Assembly: GCA_019244185.1 (NCBI GenBank)
Contig: JAFATB010000019.1
Coordinates: forward strand, 224,001-288,000
Reading direction: 5' to 3'
Length of the DNA: 64,000 nucleotides
Source of the DNA: Acidobacteriota bacterium
GTDB taxonomy: Bacteria > Acidobacteriota > Thermoanaerobaculia > Gp7-AA8
How positions within the stretch are numbered: position 1 is the stretch's first letter; each line of letters opens with the position of its first letter. Below the pieces are notes generated by a model. The model searched no databases and was not told where the DNA came from. It saw only the letters and a program-made list of their open reading frames with translations. Both the position numbers and the translations under genes were made by a program. This document shows, one piece after another, positions 31,184-47,824 of this stretch.

Positions 31184-31288
31184 GACCTCACTATCGCGTG
31201 GGTGCAGGTATATATCCACCACCTGACACACTGGTTACATCCCTCGTCGGGTGCTTTATAAGAACCTGAAGCGTCCCAATCGTGATGA

Positions 31289-32338: not shown

Positions 32339-32736
32339 CGGAGAAAAAAGAGTTGGGTGCGCAGGCGATGACGGCCGCGCTGCACGGCGAGAAGACGGCC
32401 GTGCTTGAACTACAACACGCGATGATCGGCGAAGAAATCAAGACGCGCGAAGCGATCAAGACGCGCAACCTCGAAAGCATCCATGCAGACGAGGCAACGC
32501 TGCGCGAGGAACTGCAGCAAGTTACGCCCGCGCATGAAGGCGCAGCCGACGATCCGAATGCACGCAAGGAGCGACACCTCCTCGAGCGCCAGGAGACCGA
32601 ACTCCATCGTGAGGAGCGCGCGGAAGAACGCGCCGCATGGACCGATGAGCAACCGCTCACGCGAGAAGACCGCGAGATCCACAAGACCACACTCGAACAG
32701 GAGCAGCGACGCAAGCGCATCGATGAGCTGATGTGA
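32335..32736 (+). CDS. Small coiled-coil protein
   Basis: 133 aa, E/R-rich helical sequence, ATGA overlap, GAGGTG SD. Confidence 0.7.
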   Translation: MTEKKELGAQAMTAALHGEKTAVLELQHAMIGEEIKTREAIKTRNLESIHADEATLREELQQVTPAHEGAADDPNARKERHLLERQETELHREERAEERAAWTDEQPLTREDREIHKTTLEQEQRRKRIDELM

Positions 32737-32737
32737 C

Positions 32738-34669
32738 TTGCTACCCGACCTTTTCCGCAAGCTCAAGCCGTTGTACGGAACAGCGATCGATCTCTTGTGG
32801 ATCGAGTATCAAACCGCCGATGTTGAACGAAAGCGCGAGATCGAGGAGTACCTCACACTCCTCGGCGTCAAGAAGCTCGGCCTCGCGGTTGGTGATGAGA
32901 AGCTTGTCCTCGACGCACCGCCGGCAGCGCTCATCGGTGAAGGCGACTTCACGATCGGGATGGTGAGCTACCCGAGCATCCCACCGTATCCGTTCCGTGT
33001 TAAGCGCAACGAGCTGCTCAGGCACATCTTCATCCTCGGGCCAACAGGAACAGGCAAGAGCACGCTGCTCCTCAACATTCTCGTGCAGATTCAAGCTGCA
33101 CGGATTCCGTTCATGGTCTTCGACTTCAAGCGCAACTATCGCTGCCTCTTGCGTGCTTCAGGCAACGAATCGCTGATTGTGTTCACTGTTGGACGCAATA
33201 CCGCATCGCTGTCGATCAACGCGCTCACACCGCCGCCCGGCGTGGAGTTCGAAGAATGGGCCGAAGCACTCAGCGACATCATCAGCACCAGCTACCTCCT
33301 CCTGCAGGGAGCACGCAACGTGATGAAGGAAGCGTTACTCCAAGCGCATGCGCAACACGGCAACACAGCGACACTGTTGCACGCGCACGCGTTGCTCGCG
33401 CACGAGTTAGACGCAACGAAGAGCGGCAGCCGACGCTACGGGTGGCTGGAGTCGTCCACGCGCAGCTTGGAGGAGCTGACGAAGGGCAGCTTCGGTCGCG
33501 CGTTAAACGCAACGAACGGCACGCCAGTCGCTGACATGCTCACACGTTCTGTCGTGTTCGAGCTACAGGGATTCGGTGATGACCAGAAGCGATTCTTCTG
33601 CCTCCTCTGGCTGGAAATTATCCTGCTCCTGCGCAAGAGCAGCAGCGCGCCCCGCGAGCAACTCCAGCACGCGCTCATCTTCGATGAAGGCCACAACGTG
33701 TTCCCGCGCGAGCGACCTGGCGAAGTGAGCGTCCCGGCGCGGCTCGCGCGTGAGGTGCGCGAGTTCGGCGAAGCAATCATCGCGGCAACGCAGCAGGCCG
33801 ACGTGAGCGAGAGCCTGATCGCGAACAGCGGATTCAAACTCATCCTGCGCTGCGACTACCCGAAGGATGTGACGTTCGCGAGTCAGCTCCTCCAGATCGA
33901 TGCGCGCTGGCTGCCGAAGCTCCCCATCGGCACGGGCATCGCGAGACTTCCCGTCCGGTTCTATTCGCCCATCCTCTTCACCTTTGGCGTGCAACCAATC
34001 AAGAACCTCGCAATTTCTGACGAGGAAGTGCACGCGCAGTGGTTGCGCACACACCTACCCATACCAAACTCCGACGTTACGTCAGCCATCGGGCAGTTGG
34101 GCGACCGCGAGGAGGCGCTCCTGCGCGACGTGGCGCTAACGCCGATCAGTCCGATCACGCATCGCTACCAACGCCTCGGCTGGCACATGGAGGTCGGCAA
34201 CCGCACGAAAGACGCGATCATCAAGCGCGGTCTCGCGCGCTTCGATGCAATCAGCACACCCCGCGGTCAGGTGAAGATCCTTACGCTCACGCCCGACGGC
34301 ACTGCGCTGCTTGCGTCACGCGGCATGACGCTGAAGCAGACACGCGGCGGCGGTGCCGAGCATGAGTTCTGGAAGCATGAACTGCGTACCATCCTCGAAC
34401 GCGCCGACTGGCTGGTCGCAGAGGAGTTTGCGCTCGGCGGTGGCAAGAGTGCTGACCTGCGCGCTGATCGCGGTGATCGTGCGCTCTTCGTCGAAGTCGA
34501 AACGGGACGGTCGGACATCGCTGCGAACGTCGCGAAGTACCCAAGCGACGTTGACCTCGTGATGTTCTTCACGAGCGCCGAGGTCGCGCAGCGCTACCGC
34601 GACCTCGTGCTGCTCGATCGGCCTGGTACGCGCTGCCTGACGCCGGCCGACCTGCACCAACTCACGTAG
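32738..34669 (+). CDS. HerA/VirD4-like (DUF87-type) ATPase fused to C-terminal wHTH and PD-(D/E)xK-like nuclease domain
   Basis: HIFILGPTGTGKS, VFDFKRNY, LIFDEGH, REFGEAIIAATQ; C-terminal EHEFWK...EEFALGGGKSADL...LFVEVETG. Confidence 0.8.
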   Translation: MLPDLFRKLKPLYGTAIDLLWIEYQTADVERKREIEEYLTLLGVKKLGLAVGDEKLVLDAPPAALIGEGDFTIGMVSYPSIPPYPFRVKRNELLRHIFILGPTGTGKSTLLLNILVQIQAARIPFMVFDFKRNYRCLLRASGNESLIVFTVGRNTASLSINALTPPPGVEFEEWAEALSDIISTSYLLLQGARNVMKEALLQAHAQHGNTATLLHAHALLAHELDATKSGSRRYGWLESSTRSLEELTKGSFGRALNATNGTPVADMLTRSVVFELQGFGDDQKRFFCLLWLEIILLLRKSSSAPREQLQHALIFDEGHNVFPRERPGEVSVPARLAREVREFGEAIIAATQQADVSESLIANSGFKLILRCDYPKDVTFASQLLQIDARWLPKLPIGTGIARLPVRFYSPILFTFGVQPIKNLAISDEEVHAQWLRTHLPIPNSDVTSAIGQLGDREEALLRDVALTPISPITHRYQRLGWHMEVGNRTKDAIIKRGLARFDAISTPRGQVKILTLTPDGTALLASRGMTLKQTRGGGAEHEFWKHELRTILERADWLVAEEFALGGGKSADLRADRGDRALFVEVETGRSDIAANVAKYPSDVDLVMFFTSAEVAQRYRDLVLLDRPGTRCLTPADLHQLT

Positions 34670-34781
34670 GTGTTTCTTCGCCGACACGCCGCGAGGAGCT
34701 CGATTCTCGCGAGCAGGAGGTGTTTCACATCTCCGATAACGTCCGATGCAAGAAAGAGTGTGAAACCGCTCGCCGCTTGTG

Positions 34782-34823
34782 AAAACCATTACGAGAAGCC
34801 GCTGCATGCAAGGTACGAACAAG
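34782..34823 (+). repeat. 42-bp direct repeat, copy 1 (AAAACCATTACGAGAAGCCG-N7-CAAGGTACGAACAAG)
   Basis: 20-bp and 15-bp blocks identical to 35254-35295, with a different 7-bp spacer. Confidence 0.9.
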
Positions 34824-34824
34824 C

Positions 34825-35241
34825 GTGCCACGACGAAGCACAGGCGCACGCTCCACCCGACGCACGGCGTCTGGATCAACGATCGTTCAAGCGATCCGCA
34901 TTCTTTCCCAAGGCAAGCCGCTGATCGAGGCCGACGAGTGTGCCATCGTTCCCGCTGACAAGATCGGCCCTGGAGAACTCGTGTTTCGTGTCGCCGGCGA
35001 CATGCCAGACGTCGGACTGGCTGATCGCGACCACCTCATCGTGGAGCCGCGCACCAATGGTGACGCCGCAACCGGCGAGTTCGTCATCGCCACGCTAGGC
35101 AATGACGCGTTCGTCGGCCGGTACTGGAGGAAGCACGGTACACGCTCACTGCTCGACGGCGCGTTCCACGTCATCGCCCAAGGCTCGGCCCTACGGGTGC
35201 TCGGCGCGGTGACGCTCGTGCTCCGCGACGAAACCCACTGA
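34825..35241 (+). CDS. Degenerate LexA/S24 peptidase-like domain protein
   Basis: FRVAGDMPDVGLADRDHLIVEP...ATGEFVIATL...LRVLGAVTLVLR follows the LexA C-terminal fold pattern but lacks the catalytic Ser and Lys. Confidence 0.7.
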   Translation: MPRRSTGARSTRRTASGSTIVQAIRILSQGKPLIEADECAIVPADKIGPGELVFRVAGDMPDVGLADRDHLIVEPRTNGDAATGEFVIATLGNDAFVGRYWRKHGTRSLLDGAFHVIAQGSALRVLGAVTLVLRDETH

Positions 35242-35253
35242 AAACACGCGCCA

Positions 35254-35295
35254 AAAACCATTACGAGAAGCCGGCTCGATCAAGGTACGAACAAG
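35254..35295 (+). repeat. 42-bp direct repeat, copy 2
   Basis: See 34782-34823. Confidence 0.9.
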
Positions 35296-35398
35296 TGTCT
35301 TGAGAGAACCGGTCGACACGCCGTCCTCCTCAGCGCGATTCGCGAAGCATCGACCTTCCTTCTCCCGAGCGCAAACACCCTGCGGAAAGGAATTAGCG

Positions 35399-36403
35399 AT
35401 GGATGATTGCGAATACCTCGGCACGCTCGAACGCGATCCTGATGGGACGGTGCGCATCCGCCGACCGCACATCCCACAAGCACCAGCACGCACGAAACGA
35501 CCAATCCAAGTCCCCTTCAGTGTGGAGCGGCAGATCGCACGCGGCAACGTGTACGCGACCACCGTCATCGGGGACAGCATGCAACCCACCATCCTCGACA
35601 ACGACGTCGTCATCGTCTCCACGAGCCGATCGCCGCGGCAACGGGACATCGTCGTCATCAGGGCCAACGGGCCGCACCCGGTGTACGGCCCCATCGACGG
35701 GTACGTGTGGCGGTACCACGCGCGTGCCGGTGAGACGTACTTAGGCAAGGACAACCCGCGCTACCGCGATCGTCAACCCGTGATGCGCGAGGAGATCGTC
35801 GGTGTCGTCACGCGCATCCTTCCCCGTGCCTACCGCGACGAGCAGGAAAACTACCTGCGCATTCAGCAACACCGCGCGCTCTCACGAGCATGCAACATAA
35901 CCGACCCACGGGACCTCGGGTTCTACCGGGAACGCGATCTACGCGAGCTCCGCGCGATCTTTCAGATCCCCGCAGATGAACTTGTCGACGGGCGGCTTCC
36001 GTGGGGTCTCTTCCGCGCAACCGCGATCACCGATCATCCGCACGTCGGCATCACGACGCAGGAGGTACTGACCGTCGAGCCCACGATCGAGAGCTGTACC
36101 GGACAACTCGTCGTTAAACGCAACGAGGACGGAGAGACGATCCTCGGCGTGCTGCAGCGCGACGGCCTGCGCTCACGGCATCCTGGCGAGTTCTTCATCG
36201 AAACCGAAGAGCGGCGCATCAACGTGTCACGCAACGACGGCCACTATCCCCTCTACCGAGCCATCGCCGTCATCAAGCGCATCCAACGGCGCGGCGTCGT
36301 CATTCGCCTGCCGCAATGGACGGTCAGCGTAACGGCACAGTCGGCGACTCGCCCCCAGGCAGAGGAACGAGCACGCGTGCGCGGCACCGGAGGAAGACGA
36401 TGA
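35399..36403 (+). CDS. Protein with tandem S24/LexA-like domains
   Basis: VIGDSMQPTILDNDVVIV...DNPRY...IVGVVTRI, plus a second degenerate copy HPHVGITTQEVLTVEP...GQLVV...IAVIKRI; GGAAAGGA SD. Confidence 0.75.
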   Translation: MDDCEYLGTLERDPDGTVRIRRPHIPQAPARTKRPIQVPFSVERQIARGNVYATTVIGDSMQPTILDNDVVIVSTSRSPRQRDIVVIRANGPHPVYGPIDGYVWRYHARAGETYLGKDNPRYRDRQPVMREEIVGVVTRILPRAYRDEQENYLRIQQHRALSRACNITDPRDLGFYRERDLRELRAIFQIPADELVDGRLPWGLFRATAITDHPHVGITTQEVLTVEPTIESCTGQLVVKRNEDGETILGVLQRDGLRSRHPGEFFIETEERRINVSRNDGHYPLYRAIAVIKRIQRRGVVIRLPQWTVSVTAQSATRPQAEERARVRGTGGRR

Positions 36404-36867
36404 GCCACGAGTGCACGCGCCGCAGCCTGCTCCAACTCCTCGGCATCACGATCGGCGCCGCCGCCATCCCCGCACGCGCACGAACCCTAGACGTGGAACC
36501 AAGCCGCGATGAACCGATTGAGGCCGAGCAACCGTTGTCAAGTCCCACACGGTTGGAGCGATTCATCCGGTCACATGGCATCAAGCCCGCGCACCTTGCA
36601 CGCGAGTCGGGCTACTCACGACAACACCTCCTCCGCCTGCGCTTTGGTCGCATGCGCCCATCGCTGACCTGCATTGCTGCACTCGTCGTCGCGCTGCGAC
36701 GGCTCACGCAACGACACATCACCGCTAAAGACCTCTTCGAGCCCGGCGATATTCACCTGGCGTGGCGCGAGGTAAGCGGACAGCACGAGGAGCACGACCA
36801 CGAACAACTGCGGGCCGCATTTGGTCGACGAACGTTGCTCGCATTCCTCAACGGAGCACGATCATGA
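36400..36867 (+). CDS. XRE-like HTH protein with N-terminal twin-arginine-like segment
   Basis: TRRSLLQLLGITIGAAAIPARA followed by GIKPAHLARESGYSRQHLLRLRFGRMRPS; GGAGG SD and ATGA overlap. Confidence 0.7.
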   Translation: MSHECTRRSLLQLLGITIGAAAIPARARTLDVEPSRDEPIEAEQPLSSPTRLERFIRSHGIKPAHLARESGYSRQHLLRLRFGRMRPSLTCIAALVVALRRLTQRHITAKDLFEPGDIHLAWREVSGQHEEHDHEQLRAAFGRRTLLAFLNGARS

Positions 36868-36918
36868 GCCGCAAGCATTACGTGTCATTCAAGCGCGGAT
36901 GCGACCTCGGGAGACGAC

Positions 36919-37383
36919 ATGAGTCCCGTTGACGCACAGCACATTCGCGAGCTCTTCCTCCACAGGCAACCCTCCTACCGGTTGAGCGAAGCGGCTCGGC
37001 TCCTTAGCATGACGCGCGGTCGGCTAGAGCGCGAAGCACGCGCCGACCAGGAGGACGCGTATCGTGTGAACGGCCGCTGGCGCTTCACGTGGCGACAACT
37101 AGCGTATCTCGCGTTTCGCCGCTGGTCACTGAGCGACATCCACGAGGCGCTCGGCATTGATGCTACTGCAGTGCTGCCGCCACTCCTCGCGCTGCGCACG
37201 ATCTCCATTCGGCTGCCGGAGTACCTCGTGCAGGCCATCGAGCACTTCGCCGTTACCGACGACACCACCGTGGACAACTGGCTGCACCATGAGCTGGTCG
37301 ACTTTGCCGGCACGGTGGTCGATCGGATGGAGAATGTCATCCCTGGTTACCGGCGCGCATACCTCTTTCCGGGTCAGGAGTAA
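36919..37383 (+). CDS. Excisionase-like HTH plus ribbon-helix-helix-like protein
   Basis: YRLSEAARLLSMTRGRL...VNGRWRF (MerR/Xis-like) and TISIRLPEYLVQAIEHFA (RHH-like). Confidence 0.6.
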   Translation: MSPVDAQHIRELFLHRQPSYRLSEAARLLSMTRGRLEREARADQEDAYRVNGRWRFTWRQLAYLAFRRWSLSDIHEALGIDATAVLPPLLALRTISIRLPEYLVQAIEHFAVTDDTTVDNWLHHELVDFAGTVVDRMENVIPGYRRAYLFPGQE

Positions 37384-37399
37384 GTTGCGCGATTACGGA

Positions 37400-39061
37400 C
37401 TACGCGGCGGGCTGCTGATTGAACACAATCGCTTCGAAATCACGCAGCGGATCTTCGGCCCGGCCTCCTCGTATCGAATGCATCATGTGCGGAATCTTGT
37501 CGAAGGTGCCGTAGGCAGTTCGGAGTGCGGCCCGATACGCGGCATCTTGCTCCGCATCAAACGGATCGCCTCTGCGTAGCGCTTTCGCCAGCACCTCGGC
37601 GAAGACCGTCTGGTTCAATCGGCGCAGCCTGAAGTACGTGTCGAAGACGAGATGCGACATGCGTGACTTGTAGCTCTCGCTCAACTTGGACGAGGTCAGG
37701 ACATCTAGCAGAATGCGGGCGAGGCAGATGATGGCGCTCTTCGGAATGTTGTGGTTCTCGTACTCATCGTTGTTCTGGATGTTGAAGAGCTCCGCGTCGT
37801 CGGTGAGGCGCTCGACCGCCAGAATCCAATCTCGGCAACGGGACACCATCTCGTAGATGAAGTAGGTGTAACGTGTTTCGTAGAAGCTGTCTGACGGAGT
37901 GTGGCGATCACGCGGATCGTGGTTCTCGATCATGCGAGTCGTGAGCACCTCGTAGTAGAGGAGCCACATGTGATGGCGGATGCGTCCGAACAACGTCGCA
38001 GTCACCATCAGATCGAAAAACACTATCGCGGCGTAGAGCGGCGAGTCCCAACAGCCGTCCTCGCGAAAGTGATCGTCTGCGGTCAGGTTGTTCGGATCGG
38101 AGTCATGCTCCCGGCGCAGCGCCAAGAGTTCTTCGTTTGCGGCATCACCGACCGGCTTGTAGATGCTGAGTCGTTCCGAAACGTGCGGATCATTGAAGAA
38201 GTAACTGAGAAGCGGCTCCCCAGAGGAGAACTGCGCGGCACGTCCATGCCCGGCACCGGGGTTGTCACGAAGCTCGCGATGAAGAACGCTGCCGGAATCA
38301 GCTAACAGCGCCCGCATGTAGTGTTTCAGGAACTCGAACATGTCGCGGTTCGGAGTGGCGAGCAGTTTGAAGGCGAGGTACGGCCGTCCTTTCGCCACTG
38401 CCTCGACGAACTCCCGTGAGCGCTGAATTCGACTGAGGAGTTGTTCTGCGCCCTCCCGCCCCGTTGCGGTTTGCGGCAGATAGCGAACCAAGGGCGACGC
38501 GAGCTTTCTTGCGACCGCTCGTATGCGATGTGGTCGGCGGGCGGCCGCTACCGTGTCCGCGTTCAGTCGAAGAGGTGCAAGTTCTTCGAGGTACTCGGCA
38601 GGAGATGGAGCGATCCAGCGCCGCACTCGTTTCCGCCACGAGTCTGTCCCGGCGAGTCGGCTGAGCCGTTCAAGATGACGGTCGACGACGTGCGCTGCTT
38701 CCGCATAGTTTTGGTTCCAAAGCAACTCCTCCATGAGAGCGTAAAGGCGGGGAACTGCGCGGCGCGACAGCCGTGAGAAGCGAAGGTGCATGCCGACTAC
38801 GGAGACCGTCAGCAGCAGAAGGACGAACGAAGCCCGTTCAGGCGTGAGATTCCACCGGCTCAATCCGAGGCGGGGTGTCAAGCCGAACGCGGCGAAGAAC
38901 GAGTAGAACTGGAGGTAACCGATTCCGATGCCGCCCAAGATCAAGAGCAGCCAATCTGTCGGACGGAAGCGGACACCGAGGTCGAGCTGCCGCGCACGAG
39001 GCATCAGTTGGTACGCAGCGACTGCGAGACCGATGACAGCGACCAAGGTGTCGAGAGTCAT
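37400..39061 (-). CDS. Hypothetical membrane-anchored protein
   Basis: 553 aa; about three N-terminal TM segments and a large helical soluble region; no recognised motif. Confidence 0.75.
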   Translation of the reverse strand: MTLDTLVAVIGLAVAAYQLMPRARQLDLGVRFRPTDWLLLILGGIGIGYLQFYSFFAAFGLTPRLGLSRWNLTPERASFVLLLLTVSVVGMHLRFSRLSRRAVPRLYALMEELLWNQNYAEAAHVVDRHLERLSRLAGTDSWRKRVRRWIAPSPAEYLEELAPLRLNADTVAAARRPHRIRAVARKLASPLVRYLPQTATGREGAEQLLSRIQRSREFVEAVAKGRPYLAFKLLATPNRDMFEFLKHYMRALLADSGSVLHRELRDNPGAGHGRAAQFSSGEPLLSYFFNDPHVSERLSIYKPVGDAANEELLALRREHDSDPNNLTADDHFREDGCWDSPLYAAIVFFDLMVTATLFGRIRHHMWLLYYEVLTTRMIENHDPRDRHTPSDSFYETRYTYFIYEMVSRCRDWILAVERLTDDAELFNIQNNDEYENHNIPKSAIICLARILLDVLTSSKLSESYKSRMSHLVFDTYFRLRRLNQTVFAEVLAKALRRGDPFDAEQDAAYRAALRTAYGTFDKIPHMMHSIRGGRAEDPLRDFEAIVFNQQPAA

Positions 39062-39382
39062 AAACCTTGGAATGTTCTAACAGTTGTGGCTGCTCGGACG
39101 TTCCCGCCGGGCTGCGTTAGGCCGCCGAGAGCTCGAAAGTCCCGACCCGGTGCGGTACTAGCCTGATTGGATAGCCGGCGCAAGTGGGGGCGCCACGAGG
39201 CTCGTCGTGCTCGTGGCAAGCTGATACGCTTCGCCAGCGTAGGAGCCGTGTGGTCCATCCTGGAGGAGTACGCGTACAGGCGTCCTGCAGCGCGATACGG
39301 GAGGAGCGACCCGTTCCTGAGTCGGATGGTGTATGCAGCAAGGCCGGAATTCGGATAATGCCATCGGGAATCAAAGCGATGC

Positions 39383-40426
39383 CTATTCCGACGGCCCGCG
39401 CTTTTCACGCCCTGCTTTCGCTACCCCATCCTCGCAGTCCGCGGCAATCCGCTCCAATACTTCCAGCACTGGAAGGCTATTCTTAAGGGGCGACTCCGAC
39501 GGTGTGCCGTGTCGCACGCTGTGACAGAAACTATGAAAGGCGTTCGCATAGCCAGCAGCATCCATACCACCTCGAGCCACGGGCAGCGAATACTCCACAT
39601 GGGCCTTGCCGCCGATGGATTCATCACGAATGTTCGCAATGCCCTCGCCGACGAACCGGGCGTCCCGATGATCTTTGACAACACCCAGGATGCCGGCACC
39701 AGTTACAAATTCTGTGCTCGTCTCGAATTTGTTCCAGTAATTACCAAGATCAAGGTCCGCACGAGCGCCGCGACTGAAGTCCAGTCCGACCTGCAAGGCG
39801 AACCGCCCATTCGCAAACAGCGTAATTCCGCTGGTAACACAGCGTGGTGGGCCAAATAGATCCAATGCCATCTCCACAGGATGGACACCGACAGAATAAA
39901 GATAGCTTCTCACTAACGACATGTTCCACATGCTGCTGCGTGGCTTAGCTGTCAAGAATCGAAGCTTCGCATACTGGATCGGACCATATCTCTCCACAAT
40001 CGCCCGCGTCTGCCGATACACCGTGCCGAAGCGGAAGTTATAATCCACAAATATTGTGCACCGCGCTTCTGTCGCGGCCTCTATCGCGGCAAGTTCGCGC
40101 AATTGGCTCGGGTGCTCCGCTGGCGGCTTTTCTATGAATGCATGAAGTCCGCGAAGAAGCGCGTATCGAGCCACGGCAACGTGGAGATGCGGCGGACCTG
40201 CTACCACGATTGCATCAGCCGCGATCGAATCTAAACACGTTTCCCATGATCCAGCATAAGCACGCACGTTGTAACGTTGTTCGAGTCGTTGCGCCTTCTC
40301 TTCGGTTCTGCAACACATCGCCACCATCTGTACCCCGTCAGCCACTTGGAGCATCGGCAACAAGTTCTCTTGCATATGCTCGCCGAGTCCAAGGATGGCT
40401 ACACGAATTGGCGACACGTGGCTCAC
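39383..40426 (-). CDS. Gfo/Idh/MocA family oxidoreductase
   Basis: RVAILGLG, DAIVVAGPPHLH, HAFIEKPPA, NFRF and GVHPVE; GTGA overlap with the upstream stop. Confidence 0.9.
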   Translation of the reverse strand: MSHVSPIRVAILGLGEHMQENLLPMLQVADGVQMVAMCCRTEEKAQRLEQRYNVRAYAGSWETCLDSIAADAIVVAGPPHLHVAVARYALLRGLHAFIEKPPAEHPSQLRELAAIEAATEARCTIFVDYNFRFGTVYRQTRAIVERYGPIQYAKLRFLTAKPRSSMWNMSLVRSYLYSVGVHPVEMALDLFGPPRCVTSGITLFANGRFALQVGLDFSRGARADLDLGNYWNKFETSTEFVTGAGILGVVKDHRDARFVGEGIANIRDESIGGKAHVEYSLPVARGGMDAAGYANAFHSFCHSVRHGTPSESPLKNSLPVLEVLERIAADCEDGVAKAGREKRGPSE

Positions 40427-42936
40427 GTCGCTTCGTCTCCCGCACGGAAGTACGGACTCAGAACGTCCTCGCATATTTTTGTGAGGACGGCCACCTTCGC
40501 CTCCCGAGCACCACTCGACCGATTGACCGACAAGTCAAAACTCACTTCGCGATCTCGCTCGTTCGGCCCGCGTATGTAGTCTGTCGCGAAGTGCAGCGCG
40601 CTAAACGACACGTCGTGATCCTCCATCCGGTTGTGTGTCGCTACGGCGTTCGCCATACGCGAAATTTCGTTGTCGATGGAGTTGGCGGTCAGCTTCGCTG
40701 AGAGATCCCGCTGGTTATAATCCTCCTCAAGGACTGTCGGTACCGACACATGACAACCGCTATCAAGGTGAGGGAACAGCGCCAGCACACCATTACGTGG
40801 CGCTGTGACCGCATGGACCACACGGTCGTGTTGCAATAACAAATACTCGGACGGGCAAAACATCCGCGAGTAGAGATCCTCCGGCGAAGTCAGCGCGCCG
40901 AGCTTTCCAACGTATAGCACTTCACGCGCGCCAAGCTCGCACACGGCACGCACGACTTCTTCGGAGATCGAGCCCCAGTAACTGTATCGAACGCCGAGCA
41001 GAGTTAAGAATCGCCCGCCGGGAAGCGAGTAACGATACGAGCCATAGTATGGCGTCTCGACCGGCGCTCGAACTTGTGTCGCCCAGCGCGCGTCATCGAG
41101 ATATTGCTTGATCGGCTCGACGTAGCCCAATAGTACGCTATCACCACCGTCAACAAGGTGCGCACCAAGTCCGGTTCTTGTCGGCAATCGCCTCTCAGCC
41201 AACGGATACCGAATTATGCTGATCCGCTCGTCGGCATGCGTCGTTTCTTCGAAGACAATATATCGAACGAGCGAGGCGTAATGCATGACGTAGTCGTGGC
41301 CGGGCGTGACGCACACGAGTAGTCCATCGGGCGCGCCCGGATTGCGACGTCGAAAGAACACTGGCCTGATGTGGTTGAATGCTTTGCTCTGGTGCGACTG
41401 TTCGCTTTCAAGCGGCACGAGGCTTCCCCAGCCATGCTGCACGGCCACCTGCGACACATCATCAGGAAAGACTCCGTGGACCTCTATCTGACCTCCGCGC
41501 GTTATTACGTCCTTGATGTCATCGGCCGGCACCTTGCGATGCACGTAGTCGTTCAGCGCACGATACATGGTGTGGTCGAGCGAGCGGCACACCGGCAAGC
41601 CGGACCATCCCTCAATAATTCGGTCGGCATACGCGGCCAATTCCGGACTTGCTGTCCCCGAGAACGCATACGCGCTGTCGGCCCCGGGAACATCGTCTGC
41701 GCTCGTCACGACGTTAGGCTGCGGCTCGGCGTCGAGGTAGCTCGTCCGGCGCGGCCCCGCCGGGACTGCAAACGTTGGCCCAAACAGGGCCAGTGGAAGG
41801 CCGCTTCTGATCGCGGCCGTTATGACGTCATTGTCGTTCGAACACTGCAGCTTCTGCCTAATCGTCTTCATGTGCGCCACTACTACTGCGCGCGCCAGAT
41901 TCGTATGAGTCGCGATTAGATCTGGCGATTGCAGGCTCAGCATGCCCTTCAGTACTTGGACTTCCTCGGACGACAACTGCTCGTTCCCGAACAGCGGCCC
42001 CAACGACAGTCCTTGTGCCGCGCCAGAGCCGAGCGCAGAGCGCGGCACCATGATCTGACCGGATATGTCGACGAAAAACCCTTGCAGGCCGATGCATCGC
42101 CCGCTTGCGTCGAACAGAGGCCGTTCCGTAACAAGAATGTCAGCCATCCGATCGACCATGATTTCTGTCTCTTGCACATTCACTCGCGGCGGCGCGTTGC
42201 CGGAGATCACTTGGCGATCACCCGCTTGAAAAAAAGGCGCGAGTGCGCGCCACGGCATGACATCGTCGGTTTTTCCGAGCATCGCCGCTGGGGAATCGAA
42301 ACCGGCGGCCTGCGCGTACCTCTCGTTGGCGGCGATATAACGGAGACTCGTGTCTTTTGCCCACGTATAGATGTCAGGGATATTCGCGGTGCCGGCGACA
42401 CCGAAGCTGTTCGGCACTCGGGCCACCAAGTGCGTTTCTGCGGACGGCTGCAACGTTGAACGGACTGCGGCGATCACCTGCTGAATTGCTTGTTCGCCGA
42501 TGTAATCCCGTTCGGCTTGCGTCAGATTCGGCGCGTTAGGCGCCAGATCAACATGGAGCGGGCTCGGCCACTTGGCAAGCACGATCTCTGGGATCCAGCG
42601 TGCACCGGCGGGCAGAATGAGTATTGGTGAGAGATCGCCTCGATCTACCCACCAGCGGACACTCCGATACAGGTCATCATCGGTGAATTCATGCATCGCA
42701 CCCGGCGTGCAGACCAGCAACCAAATGCAGGGGGTCCTGTCGCCTAGGTCGAGGACACCTCGTAGCGCCCTGGCAGCCGGCACGCCCGATCCAGGCCGGA
42801 CGGAGAGCACAAATGATTCTCTTGACGTGCCTCCGCTGACAACCACGGTGCGTCCTTGCAATGAATCATTAAGCCAGTCCGCTACTCGCTGACCATCATC
42901 CGCGCGATAGACGATGAAGACTGGCAATTCCAACAT
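40423..42936 (-). CDS. Multidomain protein: TIR-like + PAS + LuxR-type HTH + nucleoside phosphorylase-like domain
   Basis: VFIVYRADDG...LLVCTPGA (TIR-like); WAKDTSLRYIAANERY...LGKTD...PLFDASGRCIG (PAS); LSSEEVQVL...HMKTIRQKLQC (LuxR); LGAREVLYVGKLGAL...SVPTVLEE...IDNEIS...ATDY (PNP/UDP fold). Confidence 0.75.
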   Translation of the reverse strand: MLELPVFIVYRADDGQRVADWLNDSLQGRTVVVSGGTSRESFVLSVRPGSGVPAARALRGVLDLGDRTPCIWLLVCTPGAMHEFTDDDLYRSVRWWVDRGDLSPILILPAGARWIPEIVLAKWPSPLHVDLAPNAPNLTQAERDYIGEQAIQQVIAAVRSTLQPSAETHLVARVPNSFGVAGTANIPDIYTWAKDTSLRYIAANERYAQAAGFDSPAAMLGKTDDVMPWRALAPFFQAGDRQVISGNAPPRVNVQETEIMVDRMADILVTERPLFDASGRCIGLQGFFVDISGQIMVPRSALGSGAAQGLSLGPLFGNEQLSSEEVQVLKGMLSLQSPDLIATHTNLARAVVVAHMKTIRQKLQCSNDNDVITAAIRSGLPLALFGPTFAVPAGPRRTSYLDAEPQPNVVTSADDVPGADSAYAFSGTASPELAAYADRIIEGWSGLPVCRSLDHTMYRALNDYVHRKVPADDIKDVITRGGQIEVHGVFPDDVSQVAVQHGWGSLVPLESEQSHQSKAFNHIRPVFFRRRNPGAPDGLLVCVTPGHDYVMHYASLVRYIVFEETTHADERISIIRYPLAERRLPTRTGLGAHLVDGGDSVLLGYVEPIKQYLDDARWATQVRAPVETPYYGSYRYSLPGGRFLTLLGVRYSYWGSISEEVVRAVCELGAREVLYVGKLGALTSPEDLYSRMFCPSEYLLLQHDRVVHAVTAPRNGVLALFPHLDSGCHVSVPTVLEEDYNQRDLSAKLTANSIDNEISRMANAVATHNRMEDHDVSFSALHFATDYIRGPNERDREVSFDLSVNRSSGAREAKVAVLTKICEDVLSPYFRAGDEAT

Positions 42937-42942
42937 ACGGTC

Positions 42943-43887
42943 TCACCGCGCGGCCATCTCTTCGTGAAGCCTTGCTCGCTCAGCGGTCAACGCCGCAGCG
43001 AAGGACACGTACTGGTCGACACCCAGGTCGCTGAGAAACGACCACGTTGGACGCGCGGAGACCTGTAGCTCCTCTATCTGTACGTCCTCCGTGTATAGCG
43101 AGTGAACCAACGATTCACTCTCCGCCGGTGTGCGGCCTGTCGCCTGCGCGAAATACCTGGATAGCCTTTCGACGTCAGGCAGGTTGCGAGCGATGGCCGA
43201 TGCCGTGAAGGCTTTGGCAGCAGCGGCGCGCGCACCCTCGTCAAATTCTTCCCAGAGCCACCGGCCGAGCGCCTTGAACTGTGACGCGTGAATCGATTCA
43301 TCGTCTGCGTGCGTTCGGCATATTGTGCGCACCGATTCGGCCAGGCGACTATCGCCGGCAAACTTGCCAAGCTCAATCGAGATGCGCGTCTCCGTGACAA
43401 CACCGTTAAGCACTGTCACGATCTCACGCTGCGAGGCATCCGGCTCCTGGGAGCGCTGGCTTGCAAGCCGTCGTAAGAACAACGGCCCGGTGCGGTCAGG
43501 TGGGCGACCTAATCCAAACTGCGATCGAAGATCGGTAAGAAAGCGTTGGGACTGCTCGGCGTGAAAGCCTTCATCTGTTGCCAACCGGTACAGATCTTGT
43601 TCAGCGCGTTCAGGGATGTCGTACGGCAAACGTCGCACCGACGCGATGGCGGGAATCACCAGACAGTGTTCAACTTCAACGGTGTCTTCCAGGAACCCAC
43701 AGAAACACGCTGCTCCGAAGCGTCGGCTTTCATCGATGGAGCTGAAGTGGGGCTCGAGCAACGTATTCGGTGGATAGTAAATGTCGCCCGTGTCGACGCG
43801 AGGCCGCGGCAGTTCCTGCGATAGCAGTGAAGGCGTTCTCCCGGCACTCTCGTATGTGCTGTATCGTGGGTAGCTCGTGCTGGGCAT
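42943..43887 (-). CDS. AurF-family diiron N-oxygenase
   Basis: TVEVEHCLVIP, TDEGFHA, VTETRIS and HADDESIH give the E...DExxH...E...HxxDExxH ligand pattern of AurF/CmlI. Confidence 0.85.
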   Translation of the reverse strand: MPSTSYPRYSTYESAGRTPSLLSQELPRPRVDTGDIYYPPNTLLEPHFSSIDESRRFGAACFCGFLEDTVEVEHCLVIPAIASVRRLPYDIPERAEQDLYRLATDEGFHAEQSQRFLTDLRSQFGLGRPPDRTGPLFLRRLASQRSQEPDASQREIVTVLNGVVTETRISIELGKFAGDSRLAESVRTICRTHADDESIHASQFKALGRWLWEEFDEGARAAAAKAFTASAIARNLPDVERLSRYFAQATGRTPAESESLVHSLYTEDVQIEELQVSARPTWSFLSDLGVDQYVSFAAALTAERARLHEEMAAR

Positions 43888-43911
43888 GATGCAGCTTCCT
43901 AAATTCGACGA

Positions 43912-44721
43912 CTAAGGATTCACGCCGACCTTATCGTCCAATCGAAGTTGATCGCCTACGTTGACGTGCTTCCCGCCTTCGGACATGTCGAGTCGTGTAT
44001 TGACAGCGACCCGATAGTAGAGCGGCCCGAAACGTGCGCGCGTCGACCAGTCAGGAAGCGTTTCCAATCGCTTCGCGATGAAACGCTTTTCAAAGTCTGG
44101 CGTGGGCTGTCCAGTGATCGAGTCGCGCACCGGTACAACGCAGCGCTTGCAAGGCCCCACGCCATACAGGTGAACGTCGCCGAGGGAGAAGCCGACGTCG
44201 TCGCCGCGCTTGCCGAACAGCCGGTCTTCCCAGAACGCGGTGTCTGCGGATACTTCGACATTCGCTCTGAAGCGTCTTCTCGTTTCATCGAGATCTGACA
44301 ACGCATACCACGAGCTCATTTCGGCGATCGTCCCGGAGCTAATTACCGTTGGCCCCTGCGCATGCGAGTCGTCCGGAAATCCCGAATGCGTATCTCGTTT
44401 TATATGAACAGCCTTTGCGAGCGTGTCCGAGAACCACTCCTCTAAGACGGCCAGGTTTCCGACGAGATCGAATGTACGCGCCTCGGGAGAAGCGGGTGAT
44501 GTCAACGTAACGGCGAGGTTGGCGAGGTCGTACGTCGCCCTGATGTTATTCAGCCGCGCTTCGCTCTTGCCATTGATCCAGCGGTCGGCGTCGTCGTACA
44601 GCGCAAACTCGCGGTCGTGCTCCAGAGCGCCGCTGGGCAAGACAGCAGCAGCGTTGACGGAGATGCCATCAAGAGACTTGATCGGGAAGAGGACAATCTT
44701 GGAAACACGAATCTCCACCAT
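43912..44721 (-). CDS. MOSC domain protein (MOSC_N + MOSC; YcbX/mARC-like)
   Basis: FPIKSLDG, HDREFAL, GFPDD, RRFRANV, FWED and PCKRCVVP. Confidence 0.9.
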   Translation of the reverse strand: MVEIRVSKIVLFPIKSLDGISVNAAAVLPSGALEHDREFALYDDADRWINGKSEARLNNIRATYDLANLAVTLTSPASPEARTFDLVGNLAVLEEWFSDTLAKAVHIKRDTHSGFPDDSHAQGPTVISSGTIAEMSSWYALSDLDETRRRFRANVEVSADTAFWEDRLFGKRGDDVGFSLGDVHLYGVGPCKRCVVPVRDSITGQPTPDFEKRFIAKRLETLPDWSTRARFGPLYYRVAVNTRLDMSEGGKHVNVGDQLRLDDKVGVNP

Positions 44722-45937
44722 AGCTTCCTCATGAAGACGCGGCTGCAGTCACCGATCTCTACTCTGTTATGGAGTGTCAGCAGCGACGGATTCCCTACCT
44801 CCTTGAACAAAAAATCGGAGATTCATTCGAGAACGCCTGTACGATGGGCTCTCGTCCGACGTCATGGTCGATGGCGATTCGAGGCCTCTCGCGGCCGCGA
44901 ACGCACGATCACGTGTCAGCTTGAATGGCAGCGGGATGCAGCAGAACGAGAGCGATTGTCCGCGAGTGGCACTGCGGAAACGACTGCTTGCGATAGCACG
45001 GAGAGCACAACGAAACTCGTGTACCGCTGTCGTGACGATAGCCGCTTGGAGGCATGCGAACTGGCTTCCGAGATGTGCTTGGGCGAAGCCACCACTCTTG
45101 ATCGCCGATGAATCAGGGAGAGTTCGCGTCTTCGAGGAGGGATGTGCTTGCGGCCAATTCGACATACCTGCTGCGACAATCTTGGTGCGCGATTCAAGGC
45201 CGAGCGGCATAGTCGAACTAGATGGACTGGACTCCGGGCAGTTGGCGTGCCTCGAAGCTGGAGATGGCGTCCGAAAGTTGCGAAGAGAATTAGCATGGCA
45301 AGTCGCCGAATCAAAGCGGGTTGAGGCGATACTTCGTTAGTCTGATCCGGATCGAACCGCCGATGCCGCTCGTCGGCGGTTCAATGTCGCCAACTTCCGT
45401 GGTCCTTGCATCACTTTTTTTTGCGGCGGCGAGCGCGCCGGGCGATTCGCGGCCTCAACGTCACGCTCCGTGCGCATCTTCTTCAGCGTCTCGCGTTGAC
45501 CTGTGGGCAGATGCCCGGATGAGCCCCGAGAAGCGCAAGCCGAGACGCCCTTCGCGATTCGGCTGCCGTCGCGCGCGTGCTGGCGCACCCGCGGGGTTGG
45601 TGGAGGCGGAGGCGGTGGCTGGATGCCAACACTACCTGTGTGAAAACCGTCCGAGTTCTGCGCGAAAACCCGTCCCAATCCACCCGGCTTGACGCCGACT
45701 CGCGTAAGGAGAAACACTTGTAACAGTTGACGTTAGGCGAAACCAGTCGATCGCGCTTGTCGACACCTGAACTCCTCACTACTGAAGGTCGCTGCGTCAC
45801 GCCACAGCGAGCAGAGCGGTTCGAAAATCGTCTCGGATACCCCGCCAGGCGGGCGGCAACGTGCCGCTGCGCTGGTTGGCCCAGCCTTCTTCAGGGTTTT
45901 CATTCTGAAGATCGTGCGCTGCGAGACTCGGTCGAAG

Positions 45938-45943
45938 TAGAAT
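45938..45943 (+). promoter_or_regulatory. Putative -10 element for tRNA-Ser(GCT)
   Basis: TAGAAT followed by a GC-rich discriminator GCGCGCC, about 57 bp upstream of the tRNA. Confidence 0.45.
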
Positions 45944-45999
45944 GCGCGCCGCGCGGAATTTCGATTTCGCGTTTCTGCTTAGTGGATTGCGCTTCAGCC

Positions 46000-46093
46000 G
46001 GAGAGATGGGTGAGTGGCTGAAACCAACGGTTTGCTAAACCGTCGTAGGGCCTTAAAGCTCTACCGAGGGTTCGAATCCCTCTCTCTCCGCCA
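46000..46093 (+). tRNA. tRNA-Ser(GCT)
   Basis: GGAGAGA acceptor stem, ACGGT-TTGCTAA-ACCGT anticodon arm, long variable arm, GTTCGAATC, GCCA end. Confidence 0.97.
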
Positions 46094-46120: not shown

Positions 46121-46158
46121 TTCTCAATTCTTCATTCTGCGTTCTGCATTCTTCATTC
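46121..46158. repeat. Short heptamer tandem repeat (TTCTNNN x5)
   Basis: ttctcaa ttcttca ttctgcg ttctgca ttcttca ttc between convergent genes. Confidence 0.65.
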
Positions 46159-47655
46159 AAGCTCCACCGGCGCCAGCGCCTCGCGTGCCGGTCCGTTCAA
46201 CACGTCTCCATCCGGCGTGAACCTCGACCCGTGGCACGGGCAGTCCCATGTGCGCTCGGCGACGTTCCACGCGACGTCGCACTTCATGTGCGTGCAGACG
46301 GGTGAGACGGCGTGCAGCGCGCCGCTCGGGTCCCGATACGCGGCGACTTTTTTGCCGTTGACCGAGAGAATTTTTGCCTCGCCGGCGCGGACGTCCGCGG
46401 TTTCTTTTCCTTCCACGTCGTGAGGCGTGAGGCGATCGGCAACGAGCCGCTTCGGGAACTCCATGTTCTCGGTGAGGAACTCGCGCACGGTCATGTGCGC
46501 GTGCACGCGGTTCGGGCGGAAGGTCTCCGCCCACGGGTTCTCGACGTCGGTCAGAAGATCGGTGCAGATCATCGCGCCGAGGGTGCCCATGGTCATGCCC
46601 TGGCCGGAGTAGCCGGTGGCGATGCAGAGATTGCCGGAGCGGCCGATGAGCGCGAGGCCGCCGTGCGGCTCGATGACCTGTCCCGACCAGCGGTAGCGCA
46701 CCGGACGCGCGCCGAACATCTCGCGCGCGTACGCTTCCACCTTCGCGAACGACGCCTCGGTGTCGTCGTTCTCGCCGACGCGGTGATCTTCGCCGCCGAC
46801 GATGAGAAACGTCCCGGAGTCGGTCTCCTGCCAGCGCGTGTAGTGATACGGATCGGCCGTATCCCAGAACAAACCGTCGGGATGCTCGCCGTCGACGGCC
46901 ATCGCGATCGCGTACGTGCGGTACGGCGCGGCTTTCGTCAGCACGACGGTGAAGCCGGAGATGGGGACGTTCGTGGCCATGATCGCGCCGCGGGCGCGGA
47001 CGGTGCCGCCTTCGCTCTCGATGATGCACGGCGTGCCGTCGTGCACGCCCGTCACCTGCGTGCGCTCGTAGATCTTGCCGCCGCGCGCCACGACCTGCGC
47101 CGCGAGACCGGCCAGGTACTCGCGCGGGTGGAACTGCGCCTGATCGCGGAAGACGACCGCGCCGCGCGTAGCGAATGGCAGCGGCACGTTGTCGGTCCAC
47201 TCGACGTCGAGCCCCGCCTCGCGCGCGGCGGCGAGCTCGTTTTTCAGCTCCCCGACGTACTTCCGCCTTTCCGTGTAGAGGTAGCCCGGCACTTTCCGGA
47301 AATGACACTCGATGGAATGGCGGGAGATCAGCTCCTCGATCTGCGCCATCGCCGCGCGGTTCGCATCGGCCACCGCCCGCGCCTCCTCCACGCTGTATTT
47401 GCGACGGAGGAAGTGATAGCGCGCGTCGACGGCGGCGGTGATGTGCGCGGTGGTGTTGCCCGTCTCGCCGCCGCCGATGACTTCCTTCTCCAGCACGGCC
47501 ACGGTCTGGCCGCGCTCGAGGAGCAGCAGCGCCGCGGTGAGGCCGGTGATGCCGGCGCCGATGACGGCCACGTCGACGTCGATTTCTCCGCGCAGAGGAT
47601 CGAAGCGCGGCGCGGCGGCGGTGGCGTCCCAGAGGGAAGTCGAACGTTGATGCAT
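46153..47655 (-). CDS. FAD-dependent oxidoreductase with C-terminal Rieske domain (YhfW-like)
   Basis: GAGITG, GETGNTTAH, CTHMKC and CPCHGSRF. Confidence 0.92.
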   Translation of the reverse strand: MHQRSTSLWDATAAAPRFDPLRGEIDVDVAVIGAGITGLTAALLLLERGQTVAVLEKEVIGGGETGNTTAHITAAVDARYHFLRRKYSVEEARAVADANRAAMAQIEELISRHSIECHFRKVPGYLYTERRKYVGELKNELAAAREAGLDVEWTDNVPLPFATRGAVVFRDQAQFHPREYLAGLAAQVVARGGKIYERTQVTGVHDGTPCIIESEGGTVRARGAIMATNVPISGFTVVLTKAAPYRTYAIAMAVDGEHPDGLFWDTADPYHYTRWQETDSGTFLIVGGEDHRVGENDDTEASFAKVEAYAREMFGARPVRYRWSGQVIEPHGGLALIGRSGNLCIATGYSGQGMTMGTLGAMICTDLLTDVENPWAETFRPNRVHAHMTVREFLTENMEFPKRLVADRLTPHDVEGKETADVRAGEAKILSVNGKKVAAYRDPSGALHAVSPVCTHMKCDVAWNVAERTWDCPCHGSRFTPDGDVLNGPAREALAPVELE

Positions 47656-47824
47656 GCGATGGAATCCTTTCCGCGCGTCGCCGAGCAAGTTCTGTGCGCG
47701 CGCACGTTTTGCGCTAAATGCAAAGCGGGCCCGGCACGCTTCGTGCTCGGCCTTAAAGCCACCTCATGGAGGTGCCGGCAGTACCGAAACGACTGATTCT
47801 GCGAACCCGAAGGAGACACACCAA

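Follow-up and report, generated by a model that had tools for sequence, protein, structure and literature searches.

Ukko, a validated anti-phage system of four enzymes, includes an AurF homologue and is proposed to make an anti-phage metabolite (10.1101/2025.01.08.631966). Among MOSC proteins, YcbX and YiiM reduce 6-hydroxylaminopurine (HAP) to adenine (PMC3831636) and mARC reduces N-oxygenated compounds (PMC10637980). The immune ATP nucleosidases Cap17 and DtcC (Detocs) are defined by the Pfam family PF01048 (10.1101/2023.01.24.525353). We analysed a 64,000-nucleotide stretch from an Acidobacteriota bacterium (contig JAFATB010000019.1, positions 224,001 to 288,000, hereafter the window) that carries a four-gene operon encoding a MOSC protein, an AurF-like oxygenase, an 837-aa fusion protein and a Gfo/Idh/MocA oxidoreductase. 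A previous interpretation made from the letters alone (the sequence-only reading) had seen in these genes one conserved pathway for an N-oxidised nucleobase or nucleoside. Our comparisons indicate that the conserved units are instead two gene pairs: pair A, consisting of the AurF-like oxygenase and a TIR-PAS-LuxR receptor, and pair B, consisting of a purine nucleoside phosphorylase-like (PNP-like) module and the Gfo protein, the two pairs being fused in the 837-aa protein. The literature searched gave no description of pair A, pair B or the fusion. Searches for VqmA with TIR, for PDC-M50, or for toroid/PNP/MocA defence returned nothing relevant, and no paper was found that pairs MOSC with an N-oxygenase gene, the term N-oxygenase being absent among the matches listed.

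The operon and the domains of its products are as follows.

43912-44721, minus strand: MOSC_N + MOSC gene, 269 aa
42943-43887, minus strand: AurF-like diiron oxygenase gene, 314 aa
40423-42936, minus strand: TIR/PAS-LuxR/PNP-like fusion gene, 837 aa
42442-42936, minus strand: TIR-like domain, residues 1-165 of the fusion (SARM1-type match via orthologue profile)
41782-42384, minus strand: PAS_4 + LuxR/GerE helix-turn-helix (HTH), VqmA-like core, residues 185-385 (Pfam and Foldseek)
40426-41649, minus strand: PNP-like module, residues 430-837, a subdomain of about 155 residues to which no fold could be assigned, followed by an NP-I fold domain (about 585-835)
39383-40426, minus strand: Gfo/Idh/MocA gene, 347 aa from a GTG start

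The coordinates of the open reading frames (ORFs) agree with the layout described by the sequence-only reading, four co-oriented genes separated by 24 bp and 6 bp and then joined by a 4-bp overlap. The longest ORF of the Gfo gene begins at an ATG at 40474, in which case its overlap with the fusion gene is 52 bp. The operon was also said to be less GC-rich than its host, and a composition scan gave values of 0.55-0.60 at 39-45 kb against 0.65-0.70 outside 30-46 kb. As that reading had likewise stated, no match to NRPS, PKS or carrier-protein families was found among the 21 ORFs scanned between 28.7 and 47.7 kb.

In order to delineate the conserved units, the AurF-like and PNP-like alignments were scanned separately. 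The AurF-like scan covered 24 loci. A gene for a TIR-PAS-LuxR protein of about 390 aa, a homologue of residues 1-390 of the fusion protein, lies directly downstream of the AurF-like gene in ten of them (L015-L017, L019-L022, L024, L026, L027). These ten are found among the 12 loci in which the AurF-like protein is at least 45% identical and the downstream flank is present; the other two, L018 and L023, have no such gene, and L025 stops within its AurF-like gene. In L037, a PAS-LuxR gene that lacks TIR is divergent and upstream of the AurF-like gene. For nine of 15 short receptor homologues, the longest contig has the same size as that of an AurF-like homologue. The remaining AurF-like loci (at most 43% identity) have a GNAT gene upstream and a 200-aa gene downstream instead. 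Accessory genes are variable: MOSC is present upstream of the AurF-like gene in two of the 24 loci (L015, L017), GGACT in three (fused in L021, separate in L024 and L026), a class-I GATase downstream in three (L016, L020, L037) and an amidase in three (L017, L018, L023).

The PNP-like scan covered 14 loci from Planctomycetota, Actinomycetota, Paenibacillus, Methylobacterium, Frankia, Rickettsiaceae, Parachlamydiales and others. The PNP-like gene is immediately followed by the Gfo gene in four of them (L001, L005, L006, L007), and the two proteins are fused in P0013 (toroid-PNP-like-Gfo, 37% identity to the window Gfo), P0129 and P0234. NUDIX genes occur within 4 kb of the PNP-like gene in four loci, as do EamA genes in four. 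Neither AurF-like nor MOSC genes were detected in any of the 14 loci (tblastn at E<=1e-3; Pfam over 113 ORFs). Among all 24 AurF-like and 14 PNP-like loci, the four operon genes occur together only in the metagenome locus L015, the sole AurF-like locus in which the PNP-like and Gfo genes are arranged as they are here; of these, L031 shows no more than a fragment of Gfo/Idh/MocA, at a contig end. L015 carries the same cassette as the window (37284-45336, 8.06 kb; 8,058 aligned bases, 94.6% identity by blastn). The sequence-only reading had itself named failure of the genes to co-occur elsewhere as grounds for giving up a single pathway, and the co-occurrence of the four genes in L015 only thus speaks against this part of it. 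Its domains, operon structure, low GC content and sensor are correct, and its family chemistry agrees with what is known; an N-oxidised base as the product has the support of this chemistry alone.

The history of the fusion was examined with a tree of 138 PNP-like domains, 26 of 163 candidates having been dropped with fewer than 300 residues aligned. The full-length relatives found for the 837-aa protein are P0006 (56% identity) and L015 (92.6%) only; P0006 shares one 128-kb contig with P0034. In the tree, the window and P0006 form a pair (SH-aLRT 88) and, together with the toroid-fused P0007, a three-row group (SH-aLRT 100) nested in a clade that has an N-terminal squalene-cyclase-like toroid. 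This nesting of the window and P0006 in a toroid-fused clade points to one fusion event. Comparison of the window with L015 gave dN/dS values of 0.19 for MOSC, 0.22 for the AurF-like gene and 0.26 for the whole fusion gene (TIR 0.30, PAS-LuxR 0.17, PNP-like 0.33), and 0.09 for a 553-aa gene that follows the operon in the cassette. All cassette parts are therefore under purifying selection (dN/dS 0.09-0.33). That the fusion might be a decaying chimera was ruled out by the values of 0.17-0.33 in each of its domains.

The AurF-like protein has 77 homologues, each about 320 aa long. A profile built from 53 such sequences matched AurF (3chh) without gaps (E 3.9e-6), and E106, H109, E166, H193, E197 and H200 aligned on AurF positions 136, 139, 196, 223, 227 and 230, which we take to be iron ligands. 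The six positions are invariant in the 53 sequences, and the protein has the diiron ligand set E, ExxH, E, HxxxExxH. Judging from its spacing, the invariant E73, outside the aligned stretch, would be the seventh iron ligand. Some orthologues pass the PF11583 threshold (L018, 38.5 bits; L027, 34.8; L035, 33.4). We therefore predict an AurF/CmlI-type amine N-oxygenase whose active site looks intact. The protein shares with AurF and CmlI (PF11583; 3chh, 5hyh) the ferritin-like diiron framework, including the extra His of HxxxExxH, but it represents a distant subfamily and is encoded beside a TIR-PAS-LuxR gene, not in a PKS/NRPS cluster. Ukko (UkkA-D, Streptomyces) likewise consists of metabolic enzymes that include an AurF homologue, UkkC. 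By their description, the partners of UkkC differ, being a tryptophan-dioxygenase-like protein, an aminotransferase and an SDR, with no TIR, PAS-LuxR, MOSC, PNP-like or Gfo component. A more distant clade of AurF-like proteins (39-43% identity; L028-L030, L032, L034) forms another conserved trio, with a GNAT acetyltransferase upstream and a protein of about 200 aa downstream that is 55-78% identical among loci, and without a TIR receptor.

In the window's own 837-aa protein, Pfam matched neither TIR nor nucleoside phosphorylase, even at E<=10, and both assignments come from relatives or models. Orthologues of residues 1-170 match TIR_2 above its gathering threshold (GA) of 28 bits (L016, 39.2; L024, 31.0; L026, 30.2), and a profile of eight orthologous TIR domains matched the SARM1 TIR (E 2.4e-8). 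The near-invariant Glu of the family ('YkEirWW') aligns with the Glu of SARM1 'WVHKEIV', which is E642 when counted from residue 564 of 7knq and is the catalytic residue of that TIR. This column (92) holds Glu in 18 of 19 aligned relatives, and Ser92 in the window and in L015. In addition, D49 of the window TIR is changed to Gly, and four of the five positions at which the window departs from the consensus of at least 85% lie in the TIR. The alignment thus indicates that the TIR of the window lineage lost its catalytic Glu, which the free-standing receptors keep. The free-standing relatives resemble Thoeris and other TIR systems in keeping this Glu and in often lying beside ThsB-type genes. 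They differ in that pair A has no ThsA-type effector and in that the TIR is joined to a transcription factor that binds a ligand, the window having Ser92 in addition.

The central part of the fusion passed the Pfam thresholds for PAS_4 (38.2 bits, GA 23.1) and GerE (23.9 bits, GA 23.5). A model of residues 1-400 gave as its best Foldseek matches VqmA of V. cholerae (E 3.2e-12) and its homologue from phage VP882 (E 1.2e-9), the match of residues 185-385 extending over about 215 columns at about 22% identity (6kju, 6ugl, 7dwm); phmmer to VqmA gave E 0.013. The receptor has the PAS + LuxR HTH architecture and fold of VqmA, the DPO receptor of V. cholerae and phage VP882 (6ugl, 6kju, 6ide, 7dwm), but adds an N-terminal TIR and a C-terminal module of 400 aa, and its partner gene encodes a diiron oxygenase, not Tdh. 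The PAS is the most conserved receptor part, with 33 of 111 columns at least 90% conserved against 17 of 165 in the TIR. The TIR, PAS and LuxR domains named in the sequence-only reading, and the built-in sensor that it proposed, are borne out by these matches.

The C-terminal module was modelled with an alignment of 24 relatives. The predicted fold of residues 430-837 (AlphaFold2; pLDDT 92.1, pTM 0.92) retrieved only nucleoside phosphorylases and hydrolases with Foldseek, from E 3.8e-10 at probability 1.00. VIA-align of the model to MTA/SAH nucleosidase (MTAN) gave Z 19.3 and an rmsd of 3.0 Å over 204 residues (model residues 156-406), and futalosine hydrolase and hexameric PNP tied with it (6aym, 4bmy, 1ecp; Z 18.7-19.3, about 3 Å, 200-214 residues). 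Identity to these enzymes is only 10-15%, and the context and domain additions are different. Invariant motifs of the family are SVPTVLEED, SIDNE (757) and FATD (786). The invariant E757 and the near-invariant D786 are 29 residues apart in the sequence and may correspond to the ribose-binding Glu and the catalytic Asp of MTAN and PNP, whose E...D pair they resemble. The module had no Pfam match at E<=10, PF01048 included, when four family members were searched, and no PADLOC match (E<=0.1 or 0.01). A profile of the PNP-like alignment matched in the PDB only squalene-hopene cyclases, through the toroid columns of other rows. The family comprises 380 cluster representatives at E<=1e-3 and 136 at E<=1e-30, of 1.84 billion searched. 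On the evidence of the model, it is assigned to the NP-I (PNP/UP/MTAN) fold outside Pfam, as either a hydrolase or a phosphorylase. Cap17 and DtcC have in common with it the NP-I fold, a position at the end of sensor proteins and, in the NLR-like relatives P0251 and P0253, the effector place. They differ from the PNP-like module in that the latter matches neither PF01048 nor PADLOC, and has an extra subdomain, an obligate-looking Gfo partner and frequent fusion to NUDIX.

The Gfo protein was matched by PF01408 GFO_IDH_MocA (67.8 bits, GA 24) and has an EKP motif, E99-K100-P101. Its best PDB match, over the full length, is 3m2t, a 'probable dehydrogenase' (E 2.6e-33), and NCBIfam names point to oxidation at the anomeric or 3-position of sugars as a frequent reaction of Gfo enzymes. 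The MOSC protein passed both of its Pfam thresholds (MOSC_N 46.8 bits, GA 25; MOSC 31.3 bits, GA 22.7) and had no match among PDB sequences at E<=0.01. Read from the sequence, Cys194 lies inside a KRC motif ('KRCVVP') and is presumably the cofactor-binding Cys of MOSC proteins. The protein has the MOSC_N + MOSC arrangement of mARC and of the N-terminal part of YcbX, with a conserved Cys-containing motif; unlike YcbX, YiiM and mARC, it is linked to an N-oxygenase gene, and it has no ferredoxin domain. It is a candidate N-hydroxylamine reductase and, as its distribution suggests, a variable accessory gene of pair A. The family calls of the sequence-only reading agree with these results for MOSC, for nucleoside phosphorylase at the level of fold and for Gfo/Idh/MocA, and also for AurF, where the agreement comes from the six aligned ligands.

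We next considered the neighbourhoods of the two pairs. Defence-type genes are present in all seven pair A loci with annotated flanks (L015, L016, L020, L021, L024, L026, L027). They include two ThsB-type TIR genes in L020 and two in L027, caspase/CHAT genes in L020 and L021, TIR-TPR in L021, SLOG + TIR in L027, DUF6079 in L016 and ORC/CDC6-like ATPases in L015. A 141-aa membrane protein is encoded directly after the TIR-PAS-LuxR gene in L024 (6228-6653) and L026 (10168-10590), the two copies being 65% identical. It matches the PADLOC phage-defence candidate PDC-M50A (E 1e-36) and may be an alternative effector of pair A.

For the PNP-like family, 28 longer representatives were inspected. Six are fused to NUDIX, two to Gfo, one to AAA_22, and two to NB-ARC/NACHT (P0251, P0253), where the PNP-like module occupies the effector position. 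In L001, a DUF4062 + toroid + PNP-like protein is encoded beside an adenosine deaminase and a SLOG-TM protein. One 2026 preprint describes the DUF4062/NIR domain as an NADase immune effector (10.64898/2026.09.04.749371). Other architectures were also noted. The PNP-like module stands at the N-terminus of the NB-ARC/NACHT/TPR (NLR-like) proteins P0251, P0253 and P0256, and at the C-terminus, after NUDIX, of P0205, P0206, P0213 and P0225 (about 1,150 aa), of which P0206 and P0225 also have a weak Zeta_toxin-like P-loop match. An analogy of the PNP-like clusters with puromycin-like 3'-aminonucleoside chemistry (Gfo + DegT + NUDIX) was set aside for the window, which contains neither an aminotransferase nor NUDIX.

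Both the architecture and the neighbourhoods of the pairs point to biological conflict. The reading we favour, tentatively and with slightly less than even confidence, is that the operon is a horizontally acquired, ligand-gated conflict module, probably anti-phage or growth-arresting, in which two older two-gene units have been fused. Every substrate, signalling direction and defence role in the following scheme is one that we infer. The oxygenase would convert a small (aryl)amine to an N-oxygenated product, and the PAS pocket would read this product or its substrate; as the most conserved part of the receptor, the PAS probably reads a small molecule. An accessory enzyme would supply or regenerate the free amine. 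Each of the enzymes GGACT, GATase, amidase and MOSC can release a free amine, the starting compound being a gamma-glutamyl conjugate, an amide or an N-hydroxylamine, and they thus probably feed or regenerate the oxygenase substrate. MOSC in particular would reduce the N-hydroxy form back to the amine, reversing the first oxidation as a reset or as self-protection. Ligand binding would drive receptor dimerisation or DNA binding, as in VqmA, and so switch on the attached enzymatic domain; TIR and NP-I domains both generally need subunit contacts for activity. In the free-standing receptors of about 390 aa the attached domain would be the TIR with its catalytic Glu, and in the window the nucleosidase and Gfo would have taken over from a TIR that lost this Glu. 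The PNP-like enzyme would then cut the N-glycosidic bond of a nucleoside or nucleotide, probably of adenine, and Gfo would oxidise the ribose, whether released or still bound, so that the cleavage could not be reversed. A more specific version, which we regard as possible but doubtful, is a write-erase-read immune switch: the AurF-type enzyme would write and MOSC erase an N-oxygenated molecule, and its reading by the PAS would turn on a covalently attached, nucleotide-destroying enzyme. With the same doubt, the effector of such a switch would be a TIR NADase ancestrally and the NP-I nucleosidase with a ribose dehydrogenase in the fusion.

Several results weigh against the conflict module. The AurF-like protein of the window scores 25.8 bits with PF11583, below the GA of 29.6, and the PNP-like family has no match to PF01048, which defines the known ATP-nucleosidase effectors. 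The five cassette proteins had no match in PADLOC-DB v2.0.0 at E<=0.1, their relatives showing weak TIR similarity only, and no relative of the AurF-like or PNP-like family was found in viral contigs. In a Parachlamydiales metagenome-assembled genome (L014, 3917-9730), the PNP-like gene belongs to a tight co-directional series ADK-HIT-aminotransferase (class-V)-NUDIX-DegT-PNP-like-EamA, which looks like an undescribed nucleoside or nucleotide-sugar pathway, and in L006 it lies near a NupC transporter in a metabolic-looking setting. Such metabolic or biosynthetic-looking operons indicate that the family is not purely one of immune effectors. Furthermore, the defence neighbours amount to guilt by association from a handful of loci, pathway regulators, too, ordinarily consist of a LuxR HTH encoded next to an enzyme, and the role of the accessory enzymes as amine suppliers is one that we assigned ourselves. 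A DUF2797 gene lies near the L014 series, similar pieces of which occur in L010, L011 and L013, from intracellular or host-associated lineages.

The same observations bear on three other explanations. According to the first proposal made for this operon, a single pathway would make an N-hydroxy or nitro nucleobase or nucleoside antimetabolite, with MOSC as self-protection and PAS-LuxR as regulator; we consider this unlikely, as we do its most concrete example, in which adenine released by the nucleosidase would be N-hydroxylated to a 6-hydroxylaminopurine-like base. The family chemistry fits: enzymes of the AurF type are amine N-oxygenases, the AurF ligands are conserved, and the statement of the sequence-only reading that MOSC enzymes reduce N-hydroxylated bases matches the published work (PMC3831636, PMC10637980). 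A glycosidic-bond enzyme and a sugar oxidoreductase are translationally coupled in one operon, and the fusion of receptor and nucleosidase in two lineages argues that the two halves work together. The AurF-containing Ukko is also proposed to make an anti-phage metabolite (10.1101/2025.01.08.631966). However, the four-gene set recurs only as the nearly identical L015 cassette, AurF-like and MOSC genes are absent from the 14 PNP-like loci, and the constant partner of the AurF-like gene is a receptor and not a nucleoside enzyme. MOSC accompanies only two of the 24 AurF-like genes. Elsewhere GGACT, GATase or amidase takes its place, which suggests that the amine is gamma-glutamyl- or acyl-masked and is not a nucleobase. 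No exporter is present in the cassette. The oxidised amine of a write-erase-read switch could be a purine base released by the nucleosidase, which would merge that version of the conflict module with the antimetabolite.

It is distinctly improbable, in our judgement, that the genes form an ordinary catabolic, detoxification or salvage operon for an aromatic amine and/or a nucleoside, regulated by PAS-LuxR, with a vestigial or structural TIR and carried on an island that plays no part in conflict. Operons of this kind typically have a regulator beside enzyme genes, the enzymes amidase, GATase, GGACT and MOSC are all frequent in catabolism, the window TIR has no catalytic Glu, and PNP-like/Gfo/NUDIX/EamA clusters near a nucleoside transporter (L006) look metabolic. 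Against this, 18 of the 19 receptors keep the TIR Glu and the TIR is under selection (dN/dS 0.30); pair A lies beside Thoeris-type TIR, caspase, SLOG and PDC genes in the seven annotated-flank loci; the PNP-like module has NLR-like and NIR fusions; and the distribution is patchy across phyla, the operon not being found in 400 genomes of the same class. Very unlikely, finally, is a VqmA-style pair for communication between cells, or between phage and host, in which the oxygenase would be an autoinducer synthase, the receptor would mainly control transcription, and the nucleosidase and Gfo would be secondary and unrelated. The best structural matches are indeed the quorum-sensing receptor VqmA and its phage homologue, the HTH is above the Pfam threshold, and a PAS that is the most conserved part of the receptor would suit one shared ligand. 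But TIR and nucleosidase domains are absent from classical receptors, purifying selection acts on every part of the fusion, pair A has no conserved neighbour for export or uptake, and no conserved operator was seen upstream of MOSC on inspection by eye.

The sequence comparisons thus describe what appears to be an undescribed, mobile, composite module whose function is predicted. If the conflict module is the correct explanation, it would represent a new immunity logic, in which an endogenous redox-modified amine gates a TIR or nucleosidase effector. It would also provide a first context and a probable function for an AurF subfamily, so far uncharacterised, with about 77 homologues, and for a nucleosidase-fold family of about 380 representatives outside Pfam with Gfo, NUDIX and NLR-type fusions. 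The natural fusion acts as a 'Rosetta stone' linking pair A and pair B, and the system can be tested as a single 5.3-kb operon.

The cassette lies within a larger island of the window:

29988-46093: low-GC island, 16 kb, between two tRNA-Ser genes (GC 0.58-0.63 against 0.65-0.70)
29988-30077: tRNA-Ser(tga), left border of the island
46000-46093: tRNA-Ser(gct), right border of the island
37284-45336: cassette common to the window and L015
37400-39061, minus strand: 553-aa protein with a helical body and hydrophobic segments at its N-terminus; the gene follows Gfo at a distance of 321 bp

The 30 relatives examined gave no match covering window 37.4-45.9 kb among the matches listed, and the island flanks are only 105 bp apart in relative G007 (C91) and 55 bp in G010 (C299). 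When 400 genomes of the same class were searched at the protein level, none had a full-length relative of the fusion protein. The PNP-like module was found there once (G302) and a match to the TIR region once (G237), the rest being PAS-only matches (residues about 160-335). The unpublished genomes G002, G024 and G152 enter only the tallies of genomes in which nothing was found. The L015 copy of the cassette directly adjoins the tRNA-Ser(tga) flank, unlike that of the window, which is preceded by a 7-kb HerA-type segment. Its recurrence without this segment indicates that the cassette is the mobile unit; it consists of the 553-aa gene, the Gfo, fusion, AurF-like and MOSC genes and about 0.6 kb upstream. 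The 553-aa protein, which has no Pfam or PADLOC match and belongs to a 270-member cluster of hypothetical proteins, is kept in L015 and has the lowest dN/dS of the cassette. It travels with the cassette and may belong to the system.

A promoter scan was uninformative, with one promoter-like site against 2.5 expected, and terminator-like sites inside genes were not trusted. The stretch is present in five DNA metagenome sequencing runs, with no RNA run among those listed.

The HerA-type segment (window 31289-37383, plus strand) contains seven ORFs, two of them without family. The others include a HerA/DUF87-type ATPase (32738-34669; PADLOC mad8, E 9e-16), two S24-peptidase-like ORFs, an HTH protein (36316-36867; weak capH match, E 5.8e-4) and a 154-aa ORF. 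A second copy of the segment, 81% identical, is found in the same genome (G000:C6:175170-180798), and partial copies in G015 and G024. Its absence from L015 suggests a separate insertion. At the left border, an ORF on the minus strand (29937-30947) abuts tRNA-Ser(tga) and has Recombinase and Zn_ribbon_recom domains without a resolvase catalytic domain; it is probably what is left of a large serine recombinase by which the island was brought in. A sequence of about 45 bp (45803-45848), about 150 bp before tRNA-Ser(gct), occurs twice in L015 (2943-2985 and 6472-6518; 89-93% identity), where it flanks ORC/CDC6-like ATPase genes. It may be a recombination or att-like site delimiting modules of the island. 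Beyond the borders, the left-flank gene (28733-29965, plus strand) has Arf/Ras/double-GTPase-like matches, and part of its DNA matches many sites in its own genome and in every relative searched, which places it in a multi-copy small-GTPase family. The right-flank gene (46153-47688, minus strand) encodes an FAD-dependent oxidoreductase (DAO) with a C-terminal Rieske 2Fe-2S domain; it is kept in the relatives and represents ordinary host DNA.

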